NCBI GenBank assembly: GCA_965178125.1
Contig: OZ237774.1
Coordinates: 186,001 to 250,000, forward strand
Reading direction: 5' to 3'
DNA: 64,000 nt
DNA from: Bilabrum cf. latius
Taxonomy: Eukaryota
Made by a program: the position numbers and the translations under genes. Shown piece after piece: positions 8,349-52,727 of the stretch. The notes below the pieces were generated by a model, which ran no database searches, was not told the origin of the DNA, and saw only the letters and a program-made list of their open reading frames with translations. The stretch's first letter is position 1, and each line of letters starts with the position of its first letter.

Positions 8349-9208
8349 TTTCTGCTGGTAGAGACTCTGCTTGTTCTCGATCCGATATGCAGAAATTGCG
8401 TTTGGCTGCTAACTTCATCTTCATTATTGAAGATTTGACCCGGTTTGGGTGTGATACCACAGCAATCAAATGGGTGTGCGTTGCTTAGTCTAGTATGCTG
8501 ATCGTGGTAGCTCTGCGCAGTCGTTTCCTTGTGATGCAAGCACACCTTGAATTTGAGATCACACGTTGTACACAGCACCCTAATCTCGCAGACAGTCACA
8601 CATGGTTGCAGTTGGCTGCCTCCGAGAGCCCATCCTCAAAGTTACCAAAAAAGACAACTGGCGAACGCTGCCCCTCAGCGCCCGAATAGCACGCGGCTTG
8701 ATTGCCGCTCAAGTCTAATTGTGACCTCCCAACTTCCTCATCCGCATGTGGTCGGATGATCCGATGCCCCTGATCCGAGCCACTCGTCACACACATGCCC
8801 GTACCTCCACGTGCCCGGCCTGTGCCCCCCCCTTACTATCCGCCGTATCAGCCCGATGACCCCACCAATCATCTTCTCCTCCACTACTTCCTTCCCACTT
8901 GGTGAACCGCCGCCCCCTTCACTCCCCATCGCGCCCATCCCCCCCCCCCTATCCCTCGCCCTCTGTATGCTCCGCCCCCCCTATCCCTTGCCCTCTCTCT
9001 CTTTGCTCCGCCCTCAACCTCCCCCCCTTCCCCCCCAATTCCATCCGTCGCCCACCCCGAGTCGCTGCCGCTCCTGCTCTTCATCACCAGCCGATTTCTC
9101 TCTTTCCTTGTCCTCCGTACCACTACGTCGCATCTGCTCCTGCACCTCGAGCGGGTCCTGCGCACACCTCGCGACCTTAATTTTAGAGACCTTATTGGCC
9201 TCACCAAC

Positions 9209-9395
9209 GATTGTCTGCTGTGCGGAGCCGCTACCGGGTCATCAGCATCGCGTTGCGCTATCACTGACGGCATGGGGCAACTCATTTAGTTCCATCAGTT
9301 GGATAGATAATAATGTTCAACCCTCTTTCCACCGCCTCCATGGCCTACTTAGCTGTGCATCCGAGATTCGCCTCAAGCGGTTGCAACCACTCGCT
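9209..9395. repeat. Direct repeat, copy 1 (about 190 bp, similar to 13959-14157)
   Basis: GATTGTCTGCTGTGCGGAGCCGCTACCGGGTCATCAGCATCGCGTTGCGCTA...GCAACCACTCGCT is near-identical to the copy 4750 bp downstream. Confidence 0.9.
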
Positions 9396-13133: not shown

Positions 13134-13958
13134 GCGAATGAGTTGATGAGCAAGCAAGCCATTCGATTCTTTGGATCCTGTAGGATGGTACACACTCCGT
13201 TGGAGATGCAACCGGTGGCTATGACTTCTGCTGCCCGGTGTATTCCGAATAGACAGGCTCATCTCTCCAAAGCTCAGCAAGTTACAAGTGTTGCTTGTCG
13301 ATACTCCCACAACAGCACGCAACTCGATATACCATCCTGATCTTTCGACCAACCCATGCTACGCGCACTGCATTTACTTTCTCATTCGATAAGCTTAGGC
13401 CTTCTCCTGCTCGCCGCACGGCCCTGTCCGCTGCTTGCACGCCCTACCACCTCCGGCCCCTTCCCCTTCCCCTTCCTTGTGCCGCTCGCAGCTCCTGCAC
13501 CCCCACCACCCAGCTGCGCCATGTACCGCTGCTTGTCCGCCGGGTCTCGATACCTCCCTGCCGCGCCTAAGAGCTTCCTCGAGCTGTCTCTCTCCCCGGT
13601 CCGCCGCCGGGCGCTCCCAGCAGACACCCTCCCGGGCCTGCTCGCGAGGTCCCCCGTGGTGGTGGTGGAAGCTGGAGTCCACCAGGATGCGGGACAGTCG
13701 GGCCTGCAGCTGGGAAGAAGTCCATGCCGCCCTGTGCGGTGTGACGAGTGGCCCCGCCAATCCCCCCGGCCGCCGAAGCGCCCCTCGCCAGTCATTGCAC
13801 CCCCGTGCGATGCACCCTCCCCGCCGCGCACTCTCCTGCCCCCCTGCCGACAAGAGGGGGCGGCTCTCGTGCCATCACCCCGTAGGCTGAGCAGCGCGGG
13901 CTGCGATGAGGACCGCCCCACGAACGACGAGCCAGAGCCAGGCCCAGAGGCTATAATT

Positions 13959-14157
13959 GATTGTCTGCTGTGCGGAGCCGCTACCGGGTCATCAGCATCG
14001 CGTTGCGCTACCACTGCCGGCATGGAGCAACTCATTTAGTTCCATCAGTTGCATAGATAATGCTCTCCAACCCTTTTCGCCGCCGCCACGGCCTACCTAG
14101 ACTAGGCCTATACTAGCTACGGATCCGAGATTCGCCTGACGGTTGCAACCACTCGCT
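13959..14157. repeat. Direct repeat, copy 2 (similar to 9209-9395)
   Basis: Visual alignment to copy 1 shows a few substitutions and small indels. Confidence 0.9.
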
Positions 14158-14213
14158 TGCACGTTTGAAACAGTTTTATCAGTCAAAATCGTAGCGTCTT
14201 TGACCCCTCGCGC

Positions 14214-17200
14214 ATGTCAGGGATGTCAAAGCATGCACGCATTCAAGCTCGAGCGGCCATGCGCAGGGCAAAACAAGAAGGTGGAAGTGGTTCGCTTCCT
14301 GCAGATGCACTGGGTTCCGATGCTGCCGCCTTCGGGCAGCTTTCCGAGTCCCCACACGACCGCGATCCAGACACGGGACGCATTCCATCAAGCGACGACT
14401 ATAATGGCAGGGAGCATGCAAACAGTGATACCGCAGATCCCGAATTTCAGCGAGCAGTGGAGGAGATGAAGGAGGCCATGCGAGCCCAGCTGGCCGCGGC
14501 CGGCGTGAGCACTATCGAAGGTCGCCCGCCGCAATTCAGCGCGCCACAGGGCGATGATAAGCAGTATTCTGCAGTTGCGAGCAACCGAGTGCTACCGCAA
14601 GGGCATGCCTCCGGATCGCACGCCTTGGACGCAAGAGCGATGGATCGTGCCACTGGCACTGGCCAAGCAGCACGGCACCAAGGCGCGGCAGGGAAAGAGC
14701 GTGCCGGAGGGATGGACCACCGGCCGCCGAGCCTACCCGAAGAGTACCGTTACGGGGCAGCGATCCGCGGGGGTGTTGGTGCTGGTGCCGGTGCATCGAG
14801 GGGCGGCGGGGAGGCCGAGCTCGAGCACCGCAATGCAATGCGCTCCGGCAGGAGGGCACTGGGCGACCGCGATTTCCCCGGGGGTGGGGCGGGGACTAGG
14901 GCGGGTGCACCGCACGATGGTGCGCCGCAGGCATACGGCCCCGGGGGCCGTCCTCTTACCCCGGGGGAGGTGCATCGCATGGCGGCGCGGCGCAAGGCGT
15001 GGGAGGGCGAATACGCGAGCGGGGGCCTCTTTTCCGGTTTGGGGGAGCAGAAGAACGACCCCGGGAGATGGAGGGGGCGGCGGGCGGCGGGGGACGAGGG
15101 TGCTGGAACTCGTGCTGGAGATGGGGCTGGAGATGCGGATGGGGCAGACGGTCGTTCTAGTTCTGGGTTGGTGCGCTCGAGGCCGCCGGTGGATTTTCCT
15201 GGGACACAACGGGGGAACCCTGCTGCTCCAGGGAACAACAAGAATCCAAGCAGTCTCGCGGCTGAACTGAAGGCCCAGGCTGCGGAACAAGAAAATGCGC
15301 GGCGCCGCGAGAGGCAGGTCAGGGAACAAGAAGACAGGCGGGTCATGCAGCAGCCAAGCTTCCTTGATAGGCTCTCGCAGCCGGACCGTCAGAAACGAAA
15401 AAGGGTTCTAGGGTAGCCCGGGGGCGGTGTAACGAGTGCGACTGGTTCCCCGCTCGGTGGCGCGTTGTCGCCGGCGCACGCGCGTGGGAGGGATGCTCGG
15501 GGGTCGCCCCAGGGGAATTCCCCGGGGGATCGTGGGGTCAACTCGTGGCGGGACCGAAGGCCGAGTCCGCTCCGGGGTACCGGCGCCGCGCAACCCGTCC
15601 TGCACCAGGTTCCGCACGGCCGCGCGGGGCCATCCTCCGACCCCCAGGGAGGTTCCCCCGTGCAGCCCAGCCGCCCGCCGGGCCGCTCCCAGTTCGCGCG
15701 CGGCGGGGGGGGGGCGGCGCTGGGGGGACCCTCGGAGGAGGAGGCGCGGGCCCGGACCTTGGCCAGGCGCAGGCAGGCGCAGGCTCTTGCCGAGCAGCTG
15801 CAGGAGTAGCAGCGGAACAAGGAGCGGCGCCGCGCAAAGGACTCGGAATCGCAGGACGAAGACTCGAAGATCCGCGGGGAGGCGGCCGTGCAGGGGGTGA
15901 GGCAGGCCGCCGAGCGGCTGTGGGAGACGAGGGGGATGGGGACGGGTGCAGCCGCCAAGAAGGGGAGGGAGACGGCGGTGGCCAGCGGTTTGGAAGCGGA
16001 GGTGCGCCGTCGTGCAGTGCAGGGACTGCCGATGAGCGACAAGGAGATGCAGTTCCGGTTAAAGCAGGCCGTGGAGGCGGAGGTGCAGCAGCAGCAGCAG
16101 GAGCAGCAGCAGAGGCAGCAGCAGGCGCACGACGAAGAGCTGCGGGGTGCATCGCACGGTGGTGCAGGCCGGGGGCTGGAGGGCGCCGCCGGTCCTGGTC
16201 GGGGCGGTGGCAGTGCTGGCGGATCGCGGGGCAGCAGCCGCGCGTCGGGGGGGGGAGAAGGAGAACGAATGACGGGCTCTGGGACCTTCGGCCGACGCAC
16301 GGACAGGAGTACCCCGCGCGGCGCCGCGGCTGGTTCCGCAGAAGACGAGGGGTCGGCCCTGGTGGGTCACCTCATGGAGGGTATCCAGGCGGGCAGGGCC
16401 GCTCGTGCGGAACTTCTGGCCGCGCGGCGCCGCGAGATCGAGGAGAGAGCGAGGGTCAGCGCGGCGGCGCACGGTTCGGGTGCACTACACGGTGGTGCGG
16501 GTGGCCGTGCTGGCATCGATGAGTCCCCCCGAGTGGAGACAGGGCCGAACAGGGGTTCGATTCCGGATCATTTGTTCCCTGGGGGTCCCAAGGTGGCGGG
16601 ACCCAGCAGCGATGGCGGTGCTCGATTTTCCGTTGCGACCGATCAGCAGAGCGGGCCGAGCGGAGGGGCCCGGTTTTCGGTCGCAACCGATCAGCACAGC
16701 GGGCCGAGTGGTGCCGACGGTGCGCGGTTTTCGGTCGCAACTGGATCAAACGACGGGCGCGGCAGCGGGGCTCGGTTTTCCGTTGCGACCGACTTGCAGT
16801 CAGGGGCGGGTCAGGGAGTAGCACGATTCTCCGTGGCTGACTCAGCCACAGGCGGTGGTGACCCGGGACGAGGCGCCCATAGCGCGGGAGGGGCTGGCTG
16901 GGGGCTCGGTGGTACGGATGCACTGCACGATGCTGCAGGATCGGGTCGGGCCGCGGTGTCGCAGGGTGACCCGGGTGCCCAGTGGCTGGATGGTGCCGCT
17001 GGAGGCAGGCGCGGTGTAGGCGGAGGCGGAGGTCCAGGTGGCAATAGTCGCGGGCAACACGGTCGCATGGGGGTGTACAGTCGGGAGTCGGAGCAGGAGA
17101 ACCTTCGCTGGGCGGGTCGGCGGGGCATGGAGGGCGGTGAGATGGGAATGGGAATGGGAATGGGGATGGGGATGGGAATGGGAATGGGAATGGGGATCGC

Positions 17201-20200
17201 TGGGGGCGGACGGGTGCGGGGGGGTGCACCGCACGATGGTGCAGTCGGCGGGATGTCCGCTGACGGCCTCGCCGCCCTGCAGGCGCATCAGGAGCGGCTG
17301 GAGGCTCGTTTGAACGAACAGATGGGCGCGCTCCGATCGATTGAGGCACAATTGCGGGCCCAGCAGGAGCAGAGGGGTACGGAGAGGATCGAGCACAGGG
17401 AGAGGGAGTTGCGTGCGATTTCAGATGCCATCGCGACCGTCAGCAGGTAGCTAGTGCAGCCCACTGCGGTGGGTCAGGCTGGCGGAAGGTTCGCTGGCGG
17501 TGACGAACCCGACGAGGGTGGTGCTGGTGAGGATGGTCGCAATTACAGGGGCAGCACCGGCGGTGGCGGCAGAAGCAGGGGTGGTGGTGCTGGGGCTGGG
17601 GCTGGTATCGGGGCGCTGGGGAACCACGTTGTTCCCCAGCGAAATGAGGGGGGTATCGAGAGGCAGAAGCAGAGGGCGGTCCGCAGGAGCACTGCATTGC
17701 AGCGCGCAGAGGCCGAGGCTGCGGCCGCCATCGACCTGGGTGAAGCTTCGCTGAGCTTCGCCGAAGGTTCGTCGGGTTCTCAGCTGAAGACGGGGCACAG
17801 GTTCGTGGGCCTGGGCGCCGCGGTGGGCAGTCCTATGTTCCGCAGCCCGGGGACAATTGCGCGGCGAGAGCTCCGCAGTCAGCAGCAGCAGCGGCACGGG
17901 GGTGCGTCCGACGATGCCGGGATGGATTCTTCGGCGGCAGGTTTTGGCTCCGAGTCGGGCATGGGGCGGAACCTAGATGAGGCAGCCAGCAGTCGGTTCG
18001 TCCGACCCGCCGGGTACGACGCAACCGGGGGCGAGGACGTGAAAACGAAGAAGAAGAAGAAGACGACGAAACATGGGACGAGGCACCAGCACCAGAGCAA
18101 CGCCGAGGGCGGCAATGGAGAGGAGGAGAACAAATCGAGAGGCCAGACCAGGCCACACACAACCACCGGTGCAAACTCAGGTAGCGTGCCATTTGGATCC
18201 CGAAAATCGGATTCCTCAAAGGGGGGGGATAGCCGCAGCCGCAGGAGCTCGGTAGGCGATGCCATCGGGAGGCCGCACACGGCCGCCGCAAAGAACTTCA
18301 GCAGCAAGTCAAGGGGTAGCGTGCGGTTTACTCGTGGCACGGGTGTGACGAGTGCGAGAACAAGCAGCCCACCGGGCACGCCGGGGCTCAGCATGAGCCG
18401 CGTGGGGGGGGTGAGGGGTGCCCACTCGGTGGGGGTGGGGGGTGGTGCAGTGATTCCGGGGGAGTTCGGGGACTCGATTCTTGAAGATGAAGAGAGACAC
18501 CCGCACGGCGACGGTGACGGGGAAGGCAAGGACGATGGGGACGACGGAAGTGAGGACGAAGACGACAACGAAGCGGGCACCTACGGCGACGGTGATTTCG
18601 AGGCGTCTGCTAGCGGAACCAAATAGGCGCCGCGCGATCGAGGGATGGCCCCCGTAGTGGGGGGACGCCACCGGGGGCCAGTGGTCGCTCTCCCCGATCC
18701 GATCATCGAGGTTGACTCCCCCGATCGGAGCAGTGAGGCATCCAAATCCCTGGCGCGGGCGGGTGCCGTACGCGGTGCAGGTGGAGGTTCAGCGTCACCA
18801 CAGGTTCCGCTAACCGCGCGCGGCGCCCTGGAGAGCACACCGGCTCGCTCCACCGACCCAAACAGCTTCCTGGCCCTGGATCGCAGCGACAGCGGAACCG
18901 ACCGGCCCGCAGTGCGCGGCGCCCGCAGGCACAGCCTCCTGGGCGGGCTCAGGCCCAGGCATCCGGAGCCAACGGACCCAGAGGCGCGGCGCCGCGCCGA
19001 AGACAGGGCCAGCGACGTCCGTGCGTCGGTTCCGCTTAGCTTCGTGGGGGGACCCCTCGATCCCAACCGGGGGAATGCGCGGCGCCTCGCCGGTTCCGCA
19101 GACCCGCACGACGCGTCTCTGCTGGACGTGGACACGTCTGCCGCCCCTGGGACAGAGAACACTGACGCGGGCGGAGCGCGGGAATCCACCGATGGATTGG
19201 GATCGGATCATCAAGGGGCGAAGAACGCCGGATCGCTCCTGCGGGCGCTGGCCACGCCCCAGCGGCCCCGCAGCGCCAACGCCGTCGGCGTGCTGGGGCG
19301 GCAGTACGATCGGGCGTCCACGGCCGGTTCCGCAGGGATCAGGGCGCGCGGCGCCAGGACGCCGGGGTCTGGGGGAAGGGTGGGCAAAGGCCCTACCCCC
19401 GCGAAGCATTGGGGTTGGGGAGAGGCTTCTGGCGCCGCGCAATCGCAGCGGAACCGCCCCGGAGCCGAGGGCAGTACACCGGCTGGATTCAGCGGCGGCC
19501 CCGGGGCGGCCGGTCATCGGGACGATGGGGATGATGGTTACGACGATTCCACAGCCGCCACGCCCAGCATGCGCGGCGCCAGTGGAAATAACGGATCCAG
19601 TGGAACGCCAGGAGCGAACCTTCGCTCACCGAACGTTCGTACCAGCCTGCAAGGCCGGTCCGTTCTCGTGTACCTACCCGGGAGCAAGGCAGGCGCATCG
19701 GGGGGGAAACCGCCGGCCCCGGAGAGTGTAGGTCGTTCGGGCGGACTCGACGTGGTGGAGGAGGCCACTGAGGCGGGCTCGCCCAGCACCGCGGGTCTGG
19801 GCCGCGGCAGCCGGGCCGGGTCTGCCACGGGCTTGGCCTTGGGCAAGGGGGGCAGGAGCAGGGCCCGGGGCAGCGAGAGGGGGAGGCGGTCGGGATTCGA
19901 GTCGGCGTCCGTATCCGGTGTGACGAGTGCGACTGGGCTGGACTCGGCTGGTGGCGAGGGAACAAGAACAGGCGGCGGGTCATCATCGTCCCCTCTGCGG
20001 GAAAGCCTGCGACCGTCACTAGAGCCTGACGATGACGTGGATGACGTGGTCGGGCATTCCGATGGTGCCAGTCCAGCGAGCCGCCGCGACAGGGACCCGG
20101 AATCGGAACTAGCGCTGCGCGGGGGCAGGCGCAGACCCCGCACAACGGACTCGGGCCGGTCGGGGCATGGCCAAACCAGACCAAGCAGTACTAAAGTCGA

Positions 20201-22229
20201 TGCTCGGCGGCGCCCGTAGACGAGCGGAACCGATGCGTCCTCTCTGACCAGGCTGAGCCAGGAAAGCGGAACCATCGCTGCGCGGCGCCGCGAGGACGCT
20301 CCGTTCGGCAGGCGATCCAGGAGCAACTCATCCGCGGGGGGACTAAGTTCCGCAGGAAGCGGCGGCGCCGCGCAGACGTCTCTCACGCGGGCGGAGCGCG
20401 CCGCCGGTATCAGCCGCGACGGCGTGCTGCTATCACCGCAGAAAACAGAAGCGGGGGCGGGGGCGGGGACCGGCTCGGCCAGAGCTGGGGGGATGCCGAC
20501 GGGATTCAGCCCCAGTGGGTCGCACTCGTCACACCTCTCTCGGCCGGACTCGGAGGGGCGGCGAGAGGCGAACAGGATCCTCGGGCTGGCTGGGCTGGAG
20601 GGCGCGGGCCCTTCTTCCGGTGGGCGGACTCGGGGGGTTGTGAGTGCAGTGGGCGGTGGGTCGGGGGGTGTCGCAAGGAGAGTGAGAGAAGCGGAGGGGG
20701 GAGAAGGGGAGGGGGCCTGGGCTGCATGGGGACGGGTAGAGGACGATTCCGGTTTGAGCGGCAGGACTGGGCAAACTGGTGGCGTGGGAGCGGCCAAGGG
20801 TGGGCAAACCGGCGGATCGGGTCGGGGCGCGAAGTCGGCAGGCCGCCCTGAAACGCCGGCCTGGCTGCGGGATCCAGAGCCGGAATCATCCCCTGCCAAC
20901 GCCACCCCGGTGGGGGCGTCTTCAGGTGTGACGAGTGTGAGAAGATCGGCGGGTCGTGCGCGGTCCCGGTCTCAACCCGACTAGGACAAACAGGCAGGTC
21001 CCCTGGAGGACCGGGAGCAGGTGGGCAATGGCGAAGTTAGCACGGATTTCGCCTTCGCGGATACGATCCAAACCCAGCTGTCCGAACTGGACGGCGAAGG
21101 TGTGACGAGTGAGACGAGAGCCTCCCAATCGGACCGCCCCCGCCAGAGCCAGCCCGGGCCAGGCAGCCGCGTGGGAACCAGCTTCGAGGACGACGACTAC
21201 GAAGATGAAGACAAACATGGAGATCGGGATGACGAAGGAAGCGCAGAGCTTGGGCAGGACGCGCGGCGCCGCAGCGGGGCCGGTTCCGCAAAGTCACGCG
21301 CCTCAGAACTGGGTCTGAACGGGGGGGTGACCGTGGCCGTGCGCCGGAGCATCGGCGCATCCGCTGGAGAGGGAGGCGGCGCCCCATCTAGTGTGACGAG
21401 TGGTATGGTGTCGGGCGACCGCGAGGATGACTACGACGGCGACGGTGGCGACGATAACGGCGGTGTTGTGACGAGTGCGCCGAGGGAGACCGGCTCTATC
21501 AGCAGGAGGTCCATCGAGCTCGCGCTGCGGGCGGAGCGGAACCCGGAATCGGAACTCGGAGGTGTGACGAGCGATCCCATCGGCGTGCGCCCCGCCGGAT
21601 CCGGCCTGTCGCCCGCCAGCAAAGCCCTTGCGGAACTTGGCGCCGCGCTCGAGGAAGCGGGCGAGCAAGCACGCATGGAGACCCGGCCCGAGTCGGGGTT
21701 CGCTGGCGAACTTTCCTTCGGGGAGGACAGCGGGGCCAGCTCCCGGGCCCCTCCCCGGCCCCCGCGTGTATCCGCGGGGGGGGGCCTGCCGCCTACTGGC
21801 CTCCCCGCGGCAGGCATCGAGACGCGAAGGGACAGCGGCACGGGGGCGAGGCGGGGCAGCAGCAGGGGCAGCAGCAGAGACAGGGGCAGCAGCAGGGGAG
21901 GGGGGAGCCAATCGGGAACAGATGGGGCTTCCCAAGGGGACCTGTCCGCGCGGCGCCGCGCAGAGGCTGCGGAACATCGTGCCGAGGCTGTGTCAGAGCG
22001 TTTGAGCAAGCTCCGGGGAGACTTGAGCGAGATGGGGCTGTCCTTCGGATCTGGGGAACAAGGGGGGCATGGAGGTCCGGGATCGGTCGTGGGCGATGGT
22101 ACCGGTGGAAATGCAGGAAGCGATGCGGGGAGCAGGCAAGGGAGCTTGGGGGGCCGGGGGCGGCTGATCGGGCCAAGGGGCAGGCGGGCGCTCTCGGGTG
22201 CCTCTGGGGGCTCTGGTGCACGGGAGTGA
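14214..22229 (+). CDS. Very large (~2670 aa) Gly/Ser/Arg/Ala-rich, mostly disordered hypothetical protein with short coiled-coil segments
   Basis: Seven consecutive same-frame ORFs (starting 14214, 15465, 15888, 17454, 18645, 20424, 21021) are separated only by TAG codons (ending 15416, 15809, 17450, 18626, 20219, 20984). The final stop is TGA. Confidence 0.75.
16617..16840 (+). repeat. Five imperfect coding repeats encoding ARFSVA(T)
   Basis: GGTTTTCGGTCGCAAC / GGTTTTCCGTTGCGACC units spaced about 45-54 bp apart. Confidence 0.8.
17142..17194 (+). repeat. (ATGGGR)n hexamer repeat encoding (MG)n
   Basis: Direct reading of the sequence. Confidence 0.9.
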
Positions 22230-31591: not shown

Positions 31592-31809
31592 AGTGCTAAT
31601 ATATTCAAAACGATCCGAATGCACTTGAATGCAAGAGTGATTGAACCGTACACTGTATACTGCAAAGTGGAGATCTGGTCGGCCAAAAGTGCAGTCTACT
31701 GTGGCGGAACTTGCCCTTGCTGCAGCAAGTGTTTGCAAACTGCCCACTCCAAGAGCACGCAACAGGCGCATATAAAGTCGCCCAAAGGAGCTCATTTAAG
31801 CTTGTAAGC

Positions 31810-35600: not shown

Positions 35601-38467
35601 GCCGCCGCCGCTGCATCGTCCGCGGACGGCCCCTGGTAGGACTCGGCTGCCTTGGCACCCCCGGGGCCGCCGTGCAGCTCGGCGGTCCCCTGCTTGCCCT
35701 TTTTCTTCGAATCACCTGTCCCATCCGCGCCAGTTGCGCTTCCTTTGCTCTTCTCACCCTCACCCTCGTCCCCTTCGCTCTCGTCTTCTTCCTCACCCAG
35801 CAGTGACCCGGTCGCGCCCTTCCAGCGGAACGAGGCGCCGCGCACCTCCAGGGCCGACGGCAGCACGGATCGCTTCTCCTTCTCATCCTCCTCGTCCTCC
35901 GCACTGCCGTGCGATGCACCCCGGGGGGCGCTCACGTCGGCCGGCACGGGGGGCAGTGCCAGCCTGGCGGCGGGGTCCACTTCCTCTGCCGTGAGGAAGG
36001 TGTGCAGCCGCTTGAGAGTGACCGTGGCTTCGACGATGTTGTTGATCACCATCGGAACTGCCGACAGCGGGAACCGCAGGATATTGAAGAGACTCAGGGA
36101 CACGAATGCCTTCTAGGCAGTGAGCGTGTGCCCCGACAGGGTGAAGGCAGTGAAGGCAGCCACGGCCACGAGCATGGGCAGGCCCGTCCACATCACGTTC
36201 GAGATGGCCTGCAAAAAGAGGTACATGCGCAGCTGCTGCAGCTCGCTGTCGCGTTGTTCCCTGATCCGATCCTCGAACCGCGACTCCCACGCGGACAGCT
36301 TGATCAGCCGGATCCCCTGGATCGCCTCGTTGGTGGAATCCACCCTCCTGTCCTTCCTCTGCATTAGCTCCGACTGCAGCCATTTCTGCAGCCGAGCCAC
36401 GCCCAAGTTGACGGGGATGAACAGCACCATGACCGCCACCCCAGCGAGCACAGAGGGGCCCATCTGCCTCCACAGAAAGTACAGAGACAGCGACATCTGG
36501 AAAGGGCCGCTCACCACCATGGCAAGGTAAGTCGTCAGGTCCTGCATGCGGGTCGCATCCGTGGACAGGAGGTTCACGATGCGACCCACCCGGGCGGACT
36601 GCCTCGCGCCCACGGACAACCGAAGCGCTTTCCGAAAGACCCCAATCACCACCGAGGATCGAAGCACCTGGCCGACCCGGAACACGCGGAGGAAGTACTG
36701 GTGCAGCAGCGCCGTGGCGAGCACAGACACAGCAAACAGAGTGGCCACGTACCCGTACCCCACTCCCGCAGTGGCGCCTTTCTTGCCCTCTGAGAAATCC
36801 TGCAGATACGTGATGATGGCATCCAGCAGGTTCGGTCCCACGAACTGAAGACAGTCGTACAGCAGCTTCAGCAGCAGGGCGCCGTAGAACTGGCCGCCGA
36901 ACGCCACCGCCAGCGACCACCACAGCTGCGGCTCCTGCGAGCCATTCAAACAGCCGCAGCACAGCGAACCAGGCGCATCCTCGGTGCGGCTGCCTCGGGA
37001 CCCGGAGCCTCCACTTCCGGATTTACCCGGAGACGAGGACGATGCGGCGAGCAGCGAAGTGCGCGCGCCAGGCGACGCGCCGCCACCGCGAGCACTCGTC
37101 ACAGGGCTCAGGTCAGCGTAAGGGCTCCCGGGCGCACTCATGGACTCCTTCGCATCAGGGGAGGACGCGACCGCCGGGGATGCGGAACCGAATCCGGCGC
37201 CGCGCATCGCCCTGGCCCTGGCCGCCTCTGCCCTCCTGCACTCGGCCCGCCACGCGCCGTCAAAGGCGCCCCTCACTGACTCGGAATCGTCCCCTTTGGA
37301 CAGCCCGGGGACGTCCTCCGCCTGCAGGGGCCTAGCCCAGCCCAGCAGCATGAGCGGGCTCAACCAGACGAAATACACCCGGCTGCACAGCCCGGCCCGC
37401 TCCTCGGGGCTCCTCGACCGGAAGGAGCCCGTCTCGCCGTCCTCCTTGGCGATCGCTGCGGAACCGTAACCTCCAGATTGCGCGGCGCCGGAAGGACCGT
37501 CCGTGAGGGAACCGTACCCGCCCCCGGCCCCCGACCTGGGGGCCCCCGCACCACCGTGCACTGCACCCGAAGTCGCGAAGGCCACCTTCTCGCCCTCACC
37601 GTAGCCCCCCACCGCAGCCAGTGCGGATTCTGCGTCGCACGCGCACAGCATCGCCGCCCAGCCGCAGAGCGCCTCCCCCCAGGACATGCGTCCCTGTGTG
37701 ACGAGTGGGATTCGGAGCAGGTACCAGAGCGCGGGCAGGGCCAGAGCTCCCGCCACCGAGGCGTGGGCGATGCTGAACGCGTCTAGGGCGTTGCGACCCG
37801 CGTCCGCGTGCTTGCCTGCATCGAACTGCAGCGCGGACACGACCAGCTGCACCAGCTCGCACCCGAAGGCCAGCACCCACCACGACAGCACGTAGTCAGG
37901 GACGGACACGGGAGCGTCGGGTCTGGTGAATGCCGTCCCGTCCTATTCCTCTTCTTCCTCCAGGTACTCATCGTCGTCCTATCCATCCCCCACGATACCC
38001 CCGCTGCAGCAAGCTCGCCCCGCCCCCCGCTCCAGCCGCTGCACCAGCGCGCCCGCGTTGAGCAGAAATGCAGCGCCGCACACGGCCGCGTACAGAAAGG
38101 CCGAGAATCGAACCGAGCTGCTGTCGTGCTCCACGGAACCGATGTATCCGCCACCAACGAGAGTTATTTCGATCAGTGGCAGAATGGCTAGCAGCACGGA
38201 GAGAGCGACGGAGATCCAACCCAGAGTGCGAGGCATCACACGGACGTGGGGCGGTGGCGACAGCCGGTGCTTGCCTGCCGCGGCGTACGCCCGAGTCGGC
38301 TGTTCCTAAGACACTCCCCCAAATGCAAACGGCAGCGCAAGCACAAAAATGGCAGCTGCTGGCACTAGGATGAAGGACTGCACAATGCAGTGCGATGCCG
38401 TGGTGCTCCCGCACATGGCCTCCGCGGCCGACCGGAAGAAATTATGCGCTACTTCGGTCTAGTTCAT
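32699..38467 (-). CDS. ABCC/MRP-family ABC transporter (~1920 aa, with TMD0-like N-terminus)
   Basis: NBD1 GHVGSGKSS, ISGGQRARV, YLLDDVLSAVDAHVG; NBD2 GKTGSGKSS, NWSHGERQL, MDEATA, TIAHR; FFDVTPQGRILNR; SLSLFNILRFPL. Single frame with TAG at 38459, 38306, 37979, 37943, 36113 and 34742. Ends TGA. Alternative start at 38416. Confidence 0.93.
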
Positions 38468-38958
38468 TGTTCAGTGTGTATTGTTGCCAGCGACTCGGTG
38501 CCTTCCAGAATGGCACGGCGACAAAACGAGGCGTCTGCTTGCCACGTCGTCGAATTCAAGCAGTCTGCTGTCCCACAGGGCTTAATCTGTGCCTGTGTGA
38601 ATTCACAACTCGACAGACTATCACCAAGTGTACTAATTATATCGTATTCGACCCTCCAGAAAGACTGGTCGGATCGGCAGTCGGTAATAAGTGCCTTGAA
38701 ACGAACAGCTTTGCTTTGGAACAGTGCCCCAGTCGTCACATCTCGGGATCAGCTGGGCCACTCCCAAGAAGATCCGATCCGCTGCAGTCACCCGTTGCGA
38801 TCCCCGCTCCTCCTCCAGTTCACCATCTGAACACTCCTGCTGGCACGTGAAGTCGCACCCACGGCTCTCTGCTGGCATTCCAGTCCCGCTGCCCACCACA
38901 GGCTGCCAACCACCACCACAACACCTGCTATCGGATCCGGATTCCCACTCGTCACTCG

Positions 38959-40628
38959 TCACTCCCGCAGCGGCTTGATCCCCAGCTTGGCCCGCAGTGC
39001 ATTCGCCTCCTCAACCTCGCTGAGTGGCGCGCCTGCTCCGGTCGATGCCTCACCGCTCGTCGCACCGCTCCCTCCCCCCACTGGCAGCTTGATCCCCGGG
39101 ATGGCCAGGGGCGCCTTCTTGCCCTTCTTGTCCTTCTTCTTCTTCTTGCTCTTGTCCTTGCTCTTGTCATGTTTCTTGCTCTTGCCATGCCCACCGCTTG
39201 CCTCCCCCTACCCCCCATGTAGGCCCGCGCCCATGCCCCCGCTAGGTGGTCCCATGGGCGCGCTAGGTGGTCCCATGGGCGCGCTAGGTGGTCCCATGGG
39301 CGCGCTAGGTGGTCCCATGGGCGCGCTAGGTGGTCCCATGGGCGCGCTAGGTGGTCCCATGGGCGCGCTAGATGGTCCCATGGGCGCCCCTCCTTCATCC
39401 GATCCATCCATCGCCGCCTGCCCCGAACCAGAACCACCACTATAACCAAAATCACCACGAGTCCCGCCCTCCACCCGGGCACGCTTGGAGGGCCTATGCA
39501 TGCCGCCCCCCTACGATCCCCCCTTTTCTTCTTCATCTTCACTTCTGAACCTACCCCTCACCTGCCCAGCCTGATGGTCTGCACCTGCACCTGCACCTGC
39601 ACCTGCACCTGCACCTGCACCTGCACCTGCACCTGCACCTGCACCTGCACCTGCACCTGCACCTGCACCTGCACCTGCACCTGCACCTGCACCTGCACCT
39701 GCCCTGCTCCCAGCGCTTCCTGCAGGCGCACCAGGTGCACCCGCGCCATCCATCGGGGCCGGCCCAGGCACAGGCTCACTCGAGGCTGCCCCACCTTTCA
39801 CACTGAACCCACTTGCGGCTCCGGATCCGGACGGCAGCGACGGCGGCACGCGATCGCCGCTAGCACGTGCCCCGTGTCCCTCCCCATCGTCGCCATAGCC
39901 CGAGGATACCGAGGATAACCCGGGCATGGGGGCCTGTCCCCGCGCGATTGCGCTAATCTCATCCCGGGTCACCATGCCCATCCCCACCAGCGGGGACTCG
40001 CGCGGCGCCAGCAGCCGGTTCCGCTCGAGCTGCATCCTGCTTGGTTTCACGGGCAGCGTGATTCCGATGGACTGCTCGTCTCGCAGCAGGCCGTCCACGA
40101 ATTCGTCCACGTGGATGATCTTCCAGCCCCCATCGACGACACGGACGGCCAGCTTTCGCATGTCGAGGAGAAGCGGCTCCAACTGCCTGTGGATGTCGGC
40201 GGGGCGAGCGACAATGCGCCAGTAGATTGCCCCTAGGACTCGCAGGTACTTGAACTCGTCTTGCTTCATGTACTCAATAGCAATGTCGGGCTCTACCGAC
40301 AGCTGCAGCATCTTGAGCAGCAGACATATGAAGTCTGTCGCCACCCGCGCACCTCCGTGCAGTCCTCCAACATGGTCCAGCTTCGTGGCCTCATCCACAA
40401 GGGTTGCAGCTGCGGTTGAAATGATTTAGTTCATATTGTGTGTTCATGGTAGCACATGGAACGGTTGAATCAGGGAAGACAATGAAAGCCAAACTCACCA
40501 TTCAACCCGAAGCAACGTTCCTTCCAGTAGCGGCTTGCATATATTCGATCGCGAGTAATCCTTTCAACAAGCAGCTGCGGGTCGTTACCGTGTACGCTTT
40601 TTGCAAGTACATCAGTGCGATTTGCCAT
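38959..40628 (-). CDS. PRP38: Pre-mRNA splicing factor PRP38A with C-terminal HIND motif
   Basis: MANRTD...HGNDPQLLVERITRDRIYASRYWKERCFGLN; intron 40410-40498 (GT-AG); FICLLLKMLQL, EFKYLRVLGAIYWR, IHVDEFVDGLL. TAG at 39511 and 39208. Ends EVEEANALRAKLGIKPLRE-TGA. Confidence 0.93.
39240..39388 (-). repeat. 21-bp coding tandem repeat (~7 copies, SAPMGPP)
   Basis: Tandem GCGCTAGGTGGTCCCATGGGC units on the + strand. Confidence 0.95.
39579..39702 (-). repeat. (GCAGGT)n microsatellite, ~20 copies, encoding (AG)n in PRP38
   Basis: Perfect CTGCAC repeats on the + strand. Confidence 0.97.
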
Positions 40629-40824: not shown

Positions 40825-41802
40825 ATGCTGCGCAGAGCAACTGCAACTGCTCGACAAATGCTGCTAGCAGTACACAGCGGCGCGAAGCGACCAGCGAGCA
40901 GATTCTTGTCATCTGCACGACAACCTGGAGTTGGTGTTGTGGCACACGTGTTCCCAGGCCGATGGGTCGACCATGACGGGCAAGGCAACAAAGACACCAT
41001 TCTCGTTGATCTACGACACATGGTGCAAATTGTGCGCGGCCATCCTCCCGCGAAAGGCCACATATCGTCTCCCGGTGGCAAGCTCGAGTGGGGTGAAAGG
41101 CTAGAAGAAGCTGCTATTCGTGAAGTTAGCGAGGAAACCGGGCTGCCTGAAGAGAGCCTCCTCCTCCCGCCCAGCCCGCTCGCCACGGTCACATAGGCGA
41201 TTGGAGCAAGTGCTCCACCGGGAAATGAGCAAGACCACTCGCCCGAGTACCACTACGTCCTAGCCCACATGTGCGTCGTTGCGATGCAAGCACCACTGGA
41301 AGCGAGCAAGAGACGCAGCGGAAGGCAGGCGAAACCCCCCTGCCACTGGCTTGGCTCACATGATGCTACTAGCAGCACAATGGCTGGGCAGATTGACAGC
41401 GCAATCGCCAGGGCACTCGACAGACCTTATTACTCCGACGATAATCTAAGCCCACAGTGTGTGCAGCGGTTGCAACCGGCTCCTCCTCTGCTCTTGCCCG
41501 AGGTACGGGCTCTGGATGATGCGGCAGCGGCGGGATGGGTGCGGACTGCCGAGGTGCTGGCCGCGTGCGGTGTGACGAGTGTTGGACCCGATGGGTAGAG
41601 CGTTGATGTAGAAGTCATGCCGGCTGCAGACGTGCAGGGCGGTGCGGAGTCCACCGGTGGATCAGTGCTGGGCCTGTGCGAGCTGGGGGCACAAGCAGGT
41701 CTTGATGGCTCCCAGGCCCCGCCGTGCGTGAGCGGGCACAGGGAGGCCGTACTGGCTGCGATCGGGTGCATGGCACGGTAGTGCAATACGATGGAGGCCT
41801 GA
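40825..41802 (+). CDS. NUDIX hydrolase with putative mitochondrial targeting peptide
   Basis: Nudix box PGGKLEWGERLEEAAIREVSEETGL. The downstream motifs YHYVLAH and ALDDAAAAGW are reached via TAG at 41194; further TAG at 41596 and 41779. Ends TGA 41800-41802. Confidence 0.82.
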
Positions 41803-41968
41803 GGGTCCCTCGAAGGCTATTCAAGTAAGTGCCGATGATTTCATGTTGTGGATGCTAGCTTTATGGATCTAGCTCTTGTTTGTCACAAGCAGGAGACCAC
41901 CAACCACGCCAACTCGCTGCACACCCTTTCCATTACAAATACTGCCTATTCGCAATTTTCCGATCAAG

Positions 41969-43699
41969 TTAAGTGACCCGCACTCGCACCAGAGGTGTCC
42001 CGCTGTCCCTCCTCCCCACCGCCCTTTTCTCGGCTGCCTGCAGCCACCGCTCCATCGACGGCGTGAAAGGTGACTGCCCAGACCCCGGAACTGGTCGGCC
42101 CCGCGAGCTCCTCGCACTCATCACACCTCTGCGATCACTCGTCACACCGAGCAGGCCACTGGGCGACGTGGGAAGCTCCAGGTCGGTGCACCGGCGGGCC
42201 GCCCCGCCTGCTCTCGCACTCGTCACACCAGATGCAGCCGGCCCGCCGTCCCCGATGCGCAACTGGGGCACAAACGCTGGGGGAGTCCGGCGACGAATCA
42301 GCTCCGAGTCCGCGGTCCCGCGGGCGCCATTCCGAAGCGGACCACCGGTGGCGGCAGCGTGCTGGCCGCGGCCTGGCTAGACCTGCCCCTGCCCCTGCCC
42401 CAGCAGCACAGTGGCGGCGGCTCGTGCTGCCCTCGCCCCGCACTCGTCACAGCCTAGTCGCCTCGGCGCAGGCCGGGTAGGCGTGTGTGGCCCTGATGAG
42501 GCGCTCGCCGCGGAGGTAGCCCTCCCACGGCGAACCTGGTGTGACGAGTGCGATCGCGCGGCAGGCGTGTTGTTGCCGCGCCCCTCCCCCTCCAAGGTGC
42601 CTTGTTGCCCTGACGTTGATGCGGCGCGACTCGGAGTCTATAATGAATGGCTGGCATCCGATCGGCAGCGGTCCCTATCGGAAATGCCGCTGCTGCTACT
42701 GCTGCTGCAGCTTCCAATCGTCCCGCTGGCTGCCCCCACTGGCAGCTATTGCCCTTGCTTCAGGTCACGGCCCACCACCACTTGCTGCGTGTCACCAACA
42801 CGGGGGATACTCCCCGAATGCAATGCCAGAGATAATACCATACTACCCTCGGCATCACCGCCGCCGCTGCCGGCATGGTTGTCGCTGGCTGATTCCGAGC
42901 AGGAATCGCCAGGCGCAGTTGCATCGATATCCTGCTCGCACGAAAGCACCTGCTTCGCGCGATAACGGGCCTACCGTGAGCTTTTCGCTACCTACACGGC
43001 CTCCCATATAATCCAGCCCAATACAAGGATCAGCTAAGCTACCGAAGAGCAGAGTAAAGCTTCGCTTCGCCGCTGCAGCCCGGGCGGATGGTGCCAAGAG
43101 GTGCTCTGCAACTGCTGCACAGCTTCAGCTGCCGCCGTTGACCCGTGCACATGCCTACTTTCCACAGCTAGTATGGCTGATACGGCCTTGCCACGCAAGC
43201 TATGCTTGCTGAGCCCCAGCTCGTGCGAATCGGGGGAAAGCATTCCGTGAGACCACGCAATCACCAATCCTAGCGACATTACAGAGACAGCCGCAGATAC
43301 CAGTGGTCCAAGGGAGCGATATGCTAGCTTCAAGGTTCGTGCACTGCTATTGGAATCGCTATCATCGATTCCTAGCAGCTGTGACCAGGCCGCAACCCAG
43401 CCCGCGCGAAGCGACAGCATCGTGGGCGCCAACCAAATAAACGCCCAAGCAGCGGCGTGTAGCAGCAAAAGTATGCTCAATTTTGATTGCATTGCGTTCC
43501 ACAAAAGCGCTAGGGCTGGAATGTGTCTGCCCTGGTGAGCGATGAACTCGCCGCCCGCATCCATTGGTAGTGCTGAGCAAACGGCACAAACGACGCAGCC
43601 TGCTAGCGATATTGTCACGAGACACGCCTTTGCAGCTATAAATATGCATGTGTTCTGGTTCTAGTCGGGTTGTAGCATTGCTGCACCATCCATTGCCAT
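41969..43699 (-). CDS. Hypothetical membrane protein with disordered C-terminus
   Basis: ORFs 43661.., 43034.., 42746.., 42377.. and 41969.. share a frame, joined by TAG (43661, 43034, 42992, 42971, 42746, 42638, 42377). Hydrophobic helices in the N-terminal half. Terminates at TAA 41969-41971. Start uncertain. Confidence 0.5.
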
Positions 43700-44368
43700 A
43701 TTGATTGTGCTCAAAGGTCCGTTCTTCTTGTCAATGTGTAGTAAATGAATGATGAAGATCATGACGTACAACCGTTGCCTAGATCTAGCGCAACGGAGCA
43801 CGATTTGCGCACCTGGACCGTGGCAGCACACAAGTCGGTCACGTAAAATCACCGGACTATTTTATCCTATGGCCTTAGACGCCCGATGTGCCCCGTCTGC
43901 TGCCTCGTCACGGCCACAAGGCCCTTTGTAACAATGGTGGGTGGCCTGCGTCGGGGGCGGGCGCAGGTGCCGTCGAACCCACCGCTGCCTTCAATGGCCG
44001 GGCCATGCGAGTCGCGGACACGGGGCACGCTGACTTGTAGAAGCCCAGGGGTTCAGGCTACTTGTGGGGGAGAGTGTGGGTGTGAATACGAGTAGCCCCA
44101 GTCGATAGAGTGCCAGAGGCGGGGGACAGGGGCGAGGTGGTGCGGATGGGGATGGGTGGCAGGGCGCTGTACACGATGTAGGATGGTTCTACTGGATGTG
44201 GACTGCTTGCAGCTTGTACAGCACCCATTCAAGCTGTGTGCCGCAGTGTAGATCCAATGGATGTAGCTACTAGCTACGCTTGGGTTCGAAATACGGTGCT
44301 ATTTGATAGAAATCTGAAATAATGTGCAAGAGCCAATGCATGTGGCACAGCACTCTCAATCCGTCACC

Positions 44369-47300: not shown

Positions 47301-50080
47301 AGGCGGCGGCCGCTGCGGAAGAAGCGGAGATGCGGGCCGGGGGTGATGTGGCGGCGGCGGAGGCAGCCGAGGTGCTGCGGGCGGGTCAGCTGCAGCTGCT
47401 TGCGGGCCAGGCGGACGGGAGTGTGACGAGCATGAGGGTGGACGACGGGGCCGCTGGGGCGCTGGGCGGGGCGGGCGTGTCCATCGGCGGTGTGGCGGTG
47501 GCGGCCAGCGGGTCTCTAAGGGACGCGACGACTCATTTCGTGGGGGCTGGGGGCGTGCAGGTGGAGCCGGTGCGGCTGCCTGACGACGCAGCCGAGAGGA
47601 TCGGATCATCGGGGGAGGGCGTTGGGGCGGCCATGGCGAGGGCCCGGGCGGGGGAGGGGGTCCCCTCTGTGCTCGCCCTAAGCTCAAGGGCCAGCGTGTG
47701 CGCCGCTGCGCAGGGGCCTGGGGCCGTGCAGCCCCTGGCTCTGGCCGGCAGGATCGACGCGGCGTGCTCCTTCCACTGGGAGCAGTGCCCGCACGGGATC
47801 GCGGCGGTGAGCGGGAGCACGCTGCGGATCCTGAGGGCGCCCGCGGCCAGGGGGTCGGCGTGGACGAAGCGAACGTTCCCTCTGAGGTACACCCCCAGGA
47901 AGGCGTGCCCCGTGCCGGGTACGCCCCTCCTAGCCGTAGTGCAGGCGGATGCCCACTGCTACTGCGCGGCAGATCGGGCTGAGCTGGCACAGGCGCTGGT
48001 GCAGGCGCAGGCAGACGAGGACGAGGACGAAGAGGAGGAGGATTAGTAGGATGGAAAGGAAGCGAAGGAGGGTGGTGGCGCGGCTGCCTCTGTGTGTGCC
48101 GAGGAACAAGCCGTGGCGGGGGCTCGTCGCGCTGCCATGCAGGCTGAGGCAGCGGAAGCGGGGGAGGAGGATGAGGCGGATGATGGAGGCAAGGTGGGCC
48201 CAGCCGATGGGGCGCTTGTGCGACTGGCCGCGGGGGAGGGGGAGAAATTCGTGCCCCTGGCAGCAGGTGTGACGAGTGCTCGGTACCCCGGCCACCCCAG
48301 CCACGTGGAGGGCATGCGCGAGATGGGGGCGGACCCCGGTCTGGAGGGTGTGTGCCTCAGGCGGGTGGGGTATCCCTTGCCCCCTGGGGAGGGGCCTTGG
48401 GCCTCGTGCGTGTCGCTGTTTGACGCGTCGGGGAGGGGTCTGCAGCCAGTGAAGGGTGGATCGAAGGGGGGCGGAGGCTAGGTCAAGGAAGGGGGAGACG
48501 AGGAAGAGGAAGAGGAAGACGAGGAGGGGCAGCTGGGGGAGCCCGATGGCAGCCTGCTGGGATCGGCGGAAATGCCCGAGGGAGTGGCGGCATTGAGCGT
48601 GGCCGCAGTGCGATTCGACGAGGGTTTGGCCACCTCTGGGATCAGGAGCGCGAGGGGAAGGGCAGGCAGCAGCAGCAGCCCTTGGTACGTGGCTGTGGGG
48701 TGCGTGCGCGGCCTGAGGTACCATCCCACGCGACTCAGGGGGGCGTGCATCCGGACCTACAGGGTGGTTCCAGGGAACAAGGAGGGGGAAGAGGACGGTG
48801 GCCAATCAGGGGGTGGTCAAAGCGGGTGGGCGGGATGCCGGCTGGTGTTTGTGCACGAGACGCAGGTCCCCGGCCCGCCTTTGGCCATGCGTTCCTTCCA
48901 GGGCCGGCTCCTGGTGGGTGTCGGGCGAGGCCTGCTCATGTTTGGGATGGGGCAGAGGCGGTTGCTGCGGAAGGCCGGATTCGAGGGGCTGCCCACCAGG
49001 GCGGCGTGCATCGAGATCATGCCCAGGAGAATTGACTCGGCCGCTGCTGCGCTGGGCGGGATGGCAGGAGGAGGCCCAGCTCCTGGTTCGTCTTCTTCTT
49101 CGTCTTCTTCGGCGTCTTCCGGTGCTGGTGCCTCGGGGGGGCAGGAAGAAGCGGCGGCGGGGGAACAGGCGGACCCGAGCTAGGGCCAGGTGTCTCTGTC
49201 GGCCATGCTGTCTGCCGCGGCGGTGCGGTCGGGCACTACGCATGGCAGAGACGGTGCCGCTGGCCAGAGGAAGAAGAGCCTGGCTCTCGCAGCTCTGGCC
49301 GCCCTGGTCAAGCCCAGCGTGCCCACCCACCTGGAGGATCCCTTGGAGCACGACTCGCTCGTGCAGTCGGAACGAATAGCCGTGGGGGACGGGCAGGAAG
49401 GCGTCGTTGTTCTCCGGTGGAGGCGCGCGAGCCAGAGCTTCGGGGTGCTGGGCGAGGACACGATCCCAAGGCACTGCACCTGCCTGTGCCCTCTGGACTA
49501 CCACACGGTGGCGGTGGGGGACAAGTTCGGGAACGTGGCTGTAGTGCGACTGCCGGAGGACGCTTCGGGGGAGGGCGAGATGGGAGTGAGCGCGGCGGAC
49601 GGGGTGCGGGCGCTGTGGGAAGGGGGCGCCAGTGGGGGCAGGATGAAGGCGCCCGGGCTGGAGCAGGTGTGCCACACGCACCTGGGGTCCGCCGTGACGG
49701 CGCTGCGGCCGGCGCGCATGCCCGGGGGCGGCGAGGTGGTGCTGGCATCGACGGTGACCGGCGGGCTGATGGCCCTGCAGCCGCTGCAGACGAGGCGAGA
49801 CATCGCGTTCGCCACGACGCTAGAAAGGTTCCTTCGGGCTCAGCGGGTGCCCGCGCTGAGCCCGGTGGGGCGGAGGCACGTCGCCTTCAGGGGAGCGTAC
49901 GTGCCGGTGCAGCGAGTGGTGGACGGAGACTACATGGAGCAGGTACTGGAGCTGCCGGCGGGGGCGAGGACAGCGCTCGCGGATGACATGGGAGACGTGG
50001 CGGGTGCGGCAGGTGCGACGGGGCGGCGGGTCGCGATGGAGAGGAAGGTCAGGAAGTTGCGCGCCCAGGTTGGGGTATGA
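44369..50080 (+). CDS. SF3B3: Splicing factor 3B subunit 3 (Rse1/SAP130), ~1850 aa with low-complexity insertions
   Basis: DYVVLTSDSGRL; intron 44696-44863; PGQYLAVDPLGRA; YELDLGIN; LVQTEQGDLF; QLYALCGRG; FPLRYTPRK; FQGRLLVGVG; LDYHTVAVGDKFGNV; GRRHVAFRGAYVPVQRVVDGD. TAG at 48044, 48047, 48479 and 49181. Ends TGA. Confidence 0.95.

Positions 50081-50459: not shown

Positions 50460-52727
<2,268 letters not shown>

Follow-up and report, generated by a model that had tools for sequence, protein, structure and literature searches.

The DNA analysed here, a stretch of 64,000 nucleotides of contig OZ237774.1 (hereafter the 64-kb window, or simply the window), is eukaryotic, nuclear DNA with long and almost intron-free genes. 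These include genes for an SF3B3/RSE1-like protein, a DHX29-like DEAH helicase, an ABCC/MRP transporter, PRP38, a NUDIX protein and a lysyl-tRNA synthetase (LysRS), as well as for FG-GAP and IPT/TIG proteins; the SF3B3 piece is placed no finer than eukaryotic CPSF_A in the Atlas. A short word, the 12-mer GTGTGACGAGTG, recurs exactly in this DNA, on both strands and mostly inside open reading frames (ORFs), and is the subject of this work. Every statement on reading frames made below depends on TAG being read as a sense codon, for which the evidence is given in a later section.

Copy number and edges of the word

We found 20 perfect copies of GTGTGACGAGTG in the window, 11 on the plus and nine on the minus strand (Table 1), where 0.01 are expected by chance (100 dinucleotide-preserving shuffles, the largest count being 1). 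The original prediction for this DNA had counted at least 20 copies of a word expected far less than once in 64 kb, and every position it named was recovered. The density amounts to about one exact copy per 3 kb, and the excess of (GG)TGTGACGAGTG over chance is about two thousandfold, on both strands. When up to two mismatches are allowed, 44 matches to GTGTGACGAGTG are found against 5.79 expected (largest 12). No 12-mer of the window is more frequent than this word, which ties with that of a (CAGGTG)n tandem repeat; there are 29 copies of its 10-letter core GTGACGAGTG and 37 of the 8-mer GTGACGAG, and the five coding 9-mers most over-represented relative to codon-order shuffles of the ORFs are all fragments of GTGTGACGAGTG.

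In order to define the edges, the 29 copies of the core GTGACGAGTG were aligned in the orientation of the word. Three positions of the 5' extension are informative (G in 21, G in 22 and T in 25 of the 29 copies), and the remaining flanking positions carry at most 0.55 bits. The unit is GGTGTGACGAGTG, with a hard 3' edge, and the word is a free-standing 11-13-mer, (GG)TGTGACGAGTG, in which the core TGTGACGAGTG mostly has GG in front. Copies of the 13-mer number 15 exact, 16 with one mismatch and 10 with two, compared with means of 0, 0.08 and 2.0 for 60 permuted control words. Nine of the 16 one-mismatch copies differ at the two leading G and only four at positions 3 to 11, an uneven clustering that would not be produced by the even decay of an inserted oligomer.

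Nothing longer than the word was found to be shared between copies. The 60-nt flanks gave mean local alignment scores of 8.5 and 8.2, compared with 7.7 for random control pieces of the same region, and maximum scores of 21 and 18 compared with 50. No partner 6-mer was found near the copies (best P 1e-4 before correction for several thousand 6-mers), no longer family that includes the 13-mer emerged from a repeat-family search of the window, and neither inverted ends, nor target duplications, nor conserved sequence beyond the word were found at the copies in the window. The word is not a palindrome, its reverse complement CACTCGTCACAC being different, and among the 44 matches with up to two mismatches no inverted pair lies closer than about 85 nt. 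The only tandem arrangement in the window, at 38946-38964, is the pair of near-copies at the PRP38 stop codon that the original prediction had pointed out, and the TGA within it does end the PRP38 frame.

The word is not an assembly artefact, since the region is present in contigs of sequencing runs from four studies and the listed contigs match the window letter for letter, although the best-matching contig set may itself be the source of the window. Contigs of four runs, probably of DNA, are colinear with the window, and none of the listed joints, with sides of 20-30 letters, falls at a copy of the word.

Relation of the word to coding sequence

Eighteen of the 20 exact copies lie within ORFs, and the other two (8781 and 13739) lie beyond every long ORF, as had been predicted for some copies. 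All 14 sense copies are read in a single frame, as (G)-V-T-S-(A/E/G/D/V), and the four antisense copies are read as HSSH (twice), TRHT and PLVT, so that each of the peptide readings originally proposed was found. Allowing one mismatch brings the number of copies to 36, of which 26 are sense (25 in the GVTS frame), six are antisense and four lie outside ORFs.

The peptide is itself enriched. GVTS is the ninth commonest tetrapeptide of the ORFs, with 17 occurrences against 0.55 expected (about 30-fold), and the tripeptide VTS occurs 26 times where 4.2 are expected. The codons used are strongly skewed: 19 of the 26 VTS are encoded by GTG-ACG-AGT, a combination for which codon usage predicts 2.5% (0.685 x 0.40 x 0.091), and the glycine of all 17 GVTS is encoded by GGT, which accounts for 20% of glycine codon usage. 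In 1000 synonymous shuffles, which preserve the protein and the codon counts of each gene, the mean number of copies was 0.118 sense and 0.028 antisense (maxima 2 and 1), against 14 and 4 observed; codon-order shuffles gave 0.002 and 0. Antisense copies are thus enriched in ORFs about as strongly as sense copies. Loss of the enrichment under shuffles that preserve protein and codon bias had been named in advance as the outcome that would speak against a constraint at the level of DNA, and the enrichment persisted. A nucleotide-level, strand-blind feature, in which the peptide is not what is constrained, is supported because the enrichment survives synonymous shuffling, because the VTS codons are skewed and because antisense and extra-ORF copies exist, in agreement with the DNA-level constraint that the original prediction had proposed.

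The bias towards one strand and one frame was compared with a model in which a strand- and frame-blind 12-mer is distributed according to the codon frequencies of the window itself. This model assigns 64% of copies to the GVTS frame, 10% to the Cys-Asp-Glu (CDE) frame, 17% to HSSH, 4% to LVT and 4% to TRHT, a sense share of 0.75; for 18 copies it predicts 11.6, 1.9, 3.0, 0.8 and 0.8 respectively, compared with 14, 0, 2, 1 and 1 observed. The second sense frame of the word includes TGA, the third demands Cys-Asp-Glu followed by Cys or Trp, and the antisense frames demand His or Leu-Val. As the split between strands and frames is what codon usage predicts, no reading at the level of RNA or translation is needed to explain it. 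What is extraordinary is the copy number alone, as the codon model expects 0.003 copies in ORFs where there are 18, and the frame bias is what would remain of a DNA-level word after filtering by protein and codon tolerance.

Position of the copies in genes and proteins

Where homologues could be aligned, the copies lie in segments that these homologues lack or have in shorter form. In the SF3B3-like gene the stretch that holds the copy at 48267 is 209 residues long, compared with 63 in human SF3B3, and the third-position G+C stays at 0.88 over the 150 nt that follow the copy. In the ABCC gene the copy at 35557 falls within the segment that links the first membrane domain to the first ATPase domain; this segment has about 150 residues, compared with about 28 in MRP1. 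The helicase gene holds five exact copies and five near-copies, all of which, except that at 22802, are N-terminal of the DHX29-like core. In places copies are closely spaced, 18-96 nt apart. The first gene (2-6313) has no copy of GTGTGACGAGTG, as predicted, and the ORFs without an exact copy include the two with the strongest codon bias (third-position G+C of 0.88 and 0.83), compared with 0.60-0.71 for most ORFs that bear copies and 0.81 for those of ABCC and SF3B3. Both the insertion-like character of the segments with copies and the absence of copies from the ORFs with the strongest bias indicate that the word survives where constraint on the protein is weak, that is, in poorly conserved segments.

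Companion words in the window

Further exact words are found in the same region. GCGGAAC occurs 38 times in the window, on both strands and inside ORFs, and about two thirds of its copies have GGCGCCGCGC or GCGCGGCGCC nearby, at most about 30 nt away to one side or the other and usually 2-30 nt downstream. GCGCGGCGCC itself, the GC word, has 29 copies in the window and extends at some sites to the 14-letter palindrome GCGCGGCGCCGCGC. One pair of the GC word and GTTCCGC falls on a conserved strand in the ATPase domain of ABCC, with no gap relative to MRP1, and therefore at least the GC word can be written by codon choice alone. A second 14-letter palindrome, ATCCACCGGTGGAT, is present in five full copies, with its core CCACCGGTGG found seven times, in ORFs, and often lies about 50-140 nt from a copy of the 13-mer.

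Table 1 Copies of the word and of its companion words in the window. Exact and one-mismatch refer to matches to GTGTGACGAGTG; peptide readings assume TAG to be a sense codon.
Feature	Position	Strand	Context
Exact	8781..8792	-	outside long ORFs; 433 nt beyond start of ORF 7113-8348(-)
Exact	13739..13750	+	outside called ORFs; 475 nt upstream of ATG 14214
Exact	18343..18354	+	sense, GVTS, ORF 14214-22229(+)
Exact	19918..19929	+	sense, GVTS, ORF 14214-22229(+)
Exact	20523..20534	-	antisense to ORF 14214-22229(+), HSSH
Exact	20926..20937	+	sense, GVTS, ORF 14214-22229(+)
Exact	21100..21111	+	sense, GVTS, ORF 14214-22229(+)
Exact	21391..21402	+	sense, SVTS, ORF 14214-22229(+)
Exact	28555..28566	-	sense, SVTS, DHX29-like ORF 22352-31795(-), N-terminal of helicase core
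Exact	29004..29015	+	antisense to DHX29-like ORF, TRHT
Exact	29158..29169	-	sense, GVTS, DHX29-like ORF
Exact	30283..30294	-	sense, GVTS, DHX29-like ORF
Exact	30466..30477	-	sense, GVTS, DHX29-like ORF
Exact	35557..35568	-	sense, GVTS, ABCC/MRP ORF 32699-38467(-)
Exact	37696..37707	+	antisense to ABCC ORF, PLVT
Exact	41570..41581	+	sense, GVTS, NUDIX-domain ORF 40825-41802(+), C-terminal of domain
Exact	42136..42147	-	sense, GVTS, ORF 41969-43762(-)
Exact	42217..42228	-	sense, GVTS, ORF 41969-43762(-)
Exact	42539..42550	+	antisense to ORF 41969-43762(-), HSSH
Exact	48267..48278	+	sense, GVTS, SF3B3-like ORF 44711-50080(+)
One-mismatch (GTA for GTG, synonymous)	15427..15438	+	sense, GVTS
One-mismatch	21466..21477	+	sense, VVTS
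One-mismatch (AGC for AGT, synonymous)	21562..21573	+	sense, GVTS
One-mismatch	22802..22813	+	antisense to DHX29-like ORF
One-mismatch (ACA for ACG, synonymous)	28255..28266	-	sense, GVTS
One-mismatch	28636..28647	-	sense, GVTS
One-mismatch (AGC)	29110..29121	-	sense, GVTS
One-mismatch	30178..30189	-	sense, DVTS
One-mismatch	30265..30276	-	sense, AVTS; 18 nt from 30283 copy
One-mismatch	34417..34428	+	antisense, ABCC transmembrane helix; may be chance
One-mismatch	37093..37104	-	sense, PVTS, ABCC, between two MRP1-aligned stretches
Two overlapping one-mismatch copies	38946..38964	-	GAGTGAC heptamer about 2.7 times
TGA within this pair	38961-38959	-	ends PRP38 frame
One-mismatch (CG to TG)	42115..42126	-	sense, GVMS
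One-mismatch	42441..42452	-	sense; sole copy in CDE frame
One-mismatch	52118..52129	-	sense, RVTT, LysRS ORF
GCGGAAC pair, example	15282-15307		
GCGGAAC pair, example	16407-16431		
GCGGAAC pair, example	29289-29306		
GCGGAAC pair, example	35825-35843		
ATCCACCGGTGGAT	22723-22736		
ATCCACCGGTGGAT	29857-29870		
ATCCACCGGTGGAT	30327-30340		
ATCCACCGGTGGAT	30712-30725		
ATCCACCGGTGGAT, partial	26010		
ATCCACCGGTGGAT, partial	41651		
ATCCACCGGTGGAT, partial	42342		

Occurrence of the word in other DNA

A scan of metagenomes returned at least 120 loci (numbered with an L below), most of which are tandem satellites of varied G+C, unrelated to the case described here. We use a strict test, in which an ORF of at least 400 codons, with TAG as sense, has to contain the word and no fewer than two in-frame TAGs; 10 of these loci pass it, two of them (L158 and L174) being very GC-rich tandem-array contigs which may be unrelated. 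On the contigs L077, L091, L096/L142, L103, L105, L123, L125, L153 and L155 the word is mostly read as GVTS, with HSSH and TRHT as antisense readings, and the same contigs hold short arrays of the word with periods of 15, 18, 22, 24 and 41 nt, including in-frame (GVTSD)n and (GVTSDA)n. L096 (1265-1303) and L142 are identical over 1.9 kb save for one 39-nt in-frame tandem unit. The other abundant words of the window are carried by L077, L103, L125, L155 and L195. The presence of the word and its companions on metagenome contigs whose ORFs contain in-frame TAG indicates that the word is a trait of a lineage and not of one locus.

No alignable DNA or translated DNA was found between the window and the at least 120 metagenome loci. 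A search for orthologues with a fragment of the ABCC gene gave 61% identity at best, in the ATPase domain only, and a search with the C-terminus of SF3B3, at the 'longer' lengths, gave no matches. In prokaryotic genomes and viral contigs the word forms local tandem arrays only, with no dispersal: among viral contigs, all 75 stretches with two cores close together are tandems of the (GTGACGA)n type or unrelated, and eight of them contain the 12-mer, locally; in prokaryotic genomes, 45 stretches have one to six copies each, within about 220 nt except in L224, where two copies lie about 310 nt apart.

Comparison with known systems

In bacteria, hyper-abundant exact words mark self DNA for uptake or reflect systems of repair or methylation. 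Examples are the DNA uptake sequences (DUS) of Neisseriaceae and the uptake signal sequences (USS) of Pasteurellaceae, both naturally competent. The original prediction had drawn an analogy with uptake sequences and with the HIP1 word of cyanobacteria, and the statistics fit it. As with DUS and USS, an exact word of 10-13 letters is present on both strands in hundreds- to thousands-fold excess; within genes it keeps to frames giving common peptides and to parts of proteins that are weakly conserved; and exact and one-mismatch copies are about equally numerous, with a strong core and softer edges. Unlike those systems, the host is a eukaryote, in which uptake machinery is neither known nor seen, the word forms no inverted pairs at gene ends, several words coexist in the window and the distribution is patchy, with seven ORFs free of copies. 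HIP1 is likewise a short word found in coding DNA regardless of the gene, through an effect at the nucleotide level, and the palindromes ATCCACCGGTGGAT and GCGCGGCGCC, the latter where it extends to GCGCGGCGCCGCGC, add to the likeness; the 13-mer, however, is not palindromic, and its host is a eukaryote.

Two other systems offer partial parallels. The shared core of hypervariable minisatellites, as in humans, is also a short sequence found singly and as the constant part of arrays at different loci, here with periods of 15 to 41 nt, but the copies in the window are mostly single and in coding DNA. Rickettsia palindromic elements (RPE) show that repeated DNA can be tolerated inside ORFs, in permissive segments of proteins, but they span about 100-150 bp with a conserved structure, whereas here nothing is conserved past 13 letters.

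Possible origins of the word

We favour, with a probability of about one half, the explanation that this is a lineage-specific DNA word whose copies are made in place and protected from change by a process that acts on DNA in a sequence-specific way. Copies would originate in situ, their exactness would be preserved by a process such as a protein that recognises the word, together with selection or with a drive (repair or gene conversion biased towards the word), and constraint on proteins would filter where copies persist. Because the copies are so exact, drive seems more likely than selection for a binding protein. Biased repair or conversion has been proposed for the accumulation of bacterial uptake sequences and of HIP1. 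The role in protein binding, chromatin, methylation or replication that the original prediction had put forward is a hypothesis.

Several points weigh against this explanation. We know of no molecular drive of such strength in eukaryotic nuclei. A recent burst of neutral copies is possible, as no alignment with an orthologue of a related species could be obtained, and the basis is 64 kb together with about a dozen short contigs. Seven ORFs, which make up 6427 of the 16884 codons, are free of exact copies although 6.9 are expected in them (P about 0.001), and a genome-wide structural signal might be more even than that. Finally, four of the six one-mismatch sense copies that differ within the VTS codons are synonymous changes, which is also what peptide-level selection on a decaying copy would give.

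It is possible, if somewhat unlikely, that the word is a neutral mutational by-product, that is, a core prone to slippage or template switching which is copied in frame, seeds coding mini-satellites and survives in disordered segments. The word corresponds to nearly 1.7 units of a heptamer G[T/A]GTGAC, which is found in tandem at 38946-38964, and the close spacing of copies in parts of the window, the arrays with 15-41-nt periods on metagenome contigs, including those which are in frame, and the confinement of copies to insertion-like segments would all be in keeping with such an origin. The 39-nt difference between L096 and L142 indicates that in-frame gain or loss of repeats is active in the lineage, and the proportions of exact (15), one-mismatch (16) and two-mismatch (10) copies suit a young family. 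Slippage, however, copies local sequence, whereas here the same 11-13-mer recurs, between flanks that are not alike, in six genes unrelated to each other and also in spacers. The uneven concentration of mismatches at the leading GG also speaks against it, as does the presence in the same region of three further exact words, two of them extending to palindromes at some or most sites, a presence that favours recognition over slippage, and similar tandem arrays in prokaryotic and viral DNA are not accompanied by dispersal.

A wider form of the favoured explanation, which we put forward tentatively and consider doubtful at present, is a nuclear vocabulary of exact words, comprising the 13-mer, GCGGAAC with GCGCGGCGCC, and ATCCACCGGTGGAT, each kept by readers that would bias repair, recombination or exchange towards DNA bearing the words. 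If true, it would give uptake sequences and HIP1 their first counterpart in the nucleus, with an effect strong enough to alter protein sequences.

An element read in RNA, on the sense strand of transcripts, for instance by an RNA-binding protein or a guide RNA or as an in-frame translation signal, is improbable. Fourteen of the 18 exact copies in ORFs are sense and in one frame, 26 of 32 are sense when one mismatch is allowed, and the pair at 38946-38964 has the orientation of PRP38 and spans the stop codon into downstream sequence. Codon usage alone, however, predicts a sense share of 0.75 and a GVTS share of 0.64, and antisense copies, four against 0.028 expected, are enriched about equally.

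Selection for a G-V-T-S motif in disordered proteins, such as a modification site, is very improbable. The high rank of GVTS among tetrapeptides would agree with it, but 19 of the 26 VTS use one codon combination, which includes the rare AGT, and the glycine is encoded by GGT, also a rare codon; the enrichment also survives synonymous shuffling and extends to antisense and extra-ORF copies. We rejected a short linear peptide motif, as it is in practice refuted by the codon skew and the synonymous shuffles.

We likewise give almost no weight to a splice signal or the end of an intron-like or transposable element (an introner, a miniature inverted-repeat transposable element (MITE) or an excision footprint), even though the word begins with GT after a G and copies start segments absent from homologues, as in SF3B3, since ORFs of 1789-3147 codons pass through the copies in one frame, third-position G+C stays high past the SF3B3 copy, the true PRP38 intron is different and there is no flank homology, inverted repeat or partner word. 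A 5' splice site or introner was rejected because frames are open through the copies and the real intron is unlike the word; a transposon, MITE or RPE was rejected because nothing is conserved past the word.

No account of a word of this kind in a eukaryotic nucleus was found: at the level of search results, a literature search for the literal word returned unrelated topics only, and one on over-represented oligonucleotides in eukaryotic coding DNA returned nothing relevant. If a reader of the word exists, eukaryotes would have in it a genome-wide DNA signal of a new kind, and a process at the level of DNA would be altering proteins by the addition of G-V-T-S to proteins of the spliceosome, to helicases and to transporters. 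If the word is only a by-product, it still shows an unusually specific process of insertion or conversion.

Genetic code and intron

The long genes are single frames broken by TAG alone (examples of in-frame TAGs are 48044, 48047, 48479, 49181, 17448, 18624, 20217 and 20982 on the plus strand, and 36115 and 34744 on the minus strand). With TAG as sense, ORFs of 1789, 1922, 2671 and 3147 codons are obtained, and the stops of 13 ORFs are TGA (11) and TAA (2). TAG is a sense codon in this DNA and probably encodes glutamine, judging from three well-aligned TAG positions at which the closest solved homologues have Gln (MRP1) and Gln and Ser (DHX29); two TAGs in LysRS are uninformative on this point. 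Of the 772 codons taken as Gln, about 7.5% are TAG. Known nuclear genetic codes have been enumerated (PMC5304391), and a literature search on UAG reassignment returned, at the level of search results, no matching GC-rich organism. A GC-rich, intron-poor eukaryote in which UAG is reassigned, probably to Gln, may be unreported, and annotation of this organism by gene callers goes wrong unless TAG is taken as sense.

The sole intron demonstrated in the window is that of PRP38 (40410-40498, minus strand), which is 89 nt long, begins with GTGAGT and ends with CAG, has 42% G+C and contains stops in all frames. Exon 1 (40628-40499) corresponds to positions 1-34 of the Pfam PRP38 domain, and the sequence from 40407 onwards to positions 37-172.

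Other repeats and features of the window

Scans of the whole window for Rfam families and tRNAs gave no matches. At the right end of the window (58000-64000) the G+C content drops from about 0.65 to 0.44, and an ORF at 58609-61659, with eight in-frame TAGs, lacks both the word and any match in Pfam. Two copies of a repeat of about 200 nt, at 9209-9395 and 13959-14157, share 82% identity overall and 92% over the first 119 nt; they lie upstream of two plus-strand genes, each a few hundred nt from an extra-ORF 13-mer. The repeat could be a shared promoter or leader element or a small RNA gene; Rfam gave no match. Tandem repeats are also present within two genes. The tail of PRP38 contains repeats at 39209-39408 and 39579-39702 (minus strand), one kind with 21-nt units encoding (APMGPPS)n and another in which (CAGGTG)n encodes (GA)n, and the FG-GAP gene contains, at 10254-11947 (plus strand), 207-nt FG-GAP units followed by 36-nt units.

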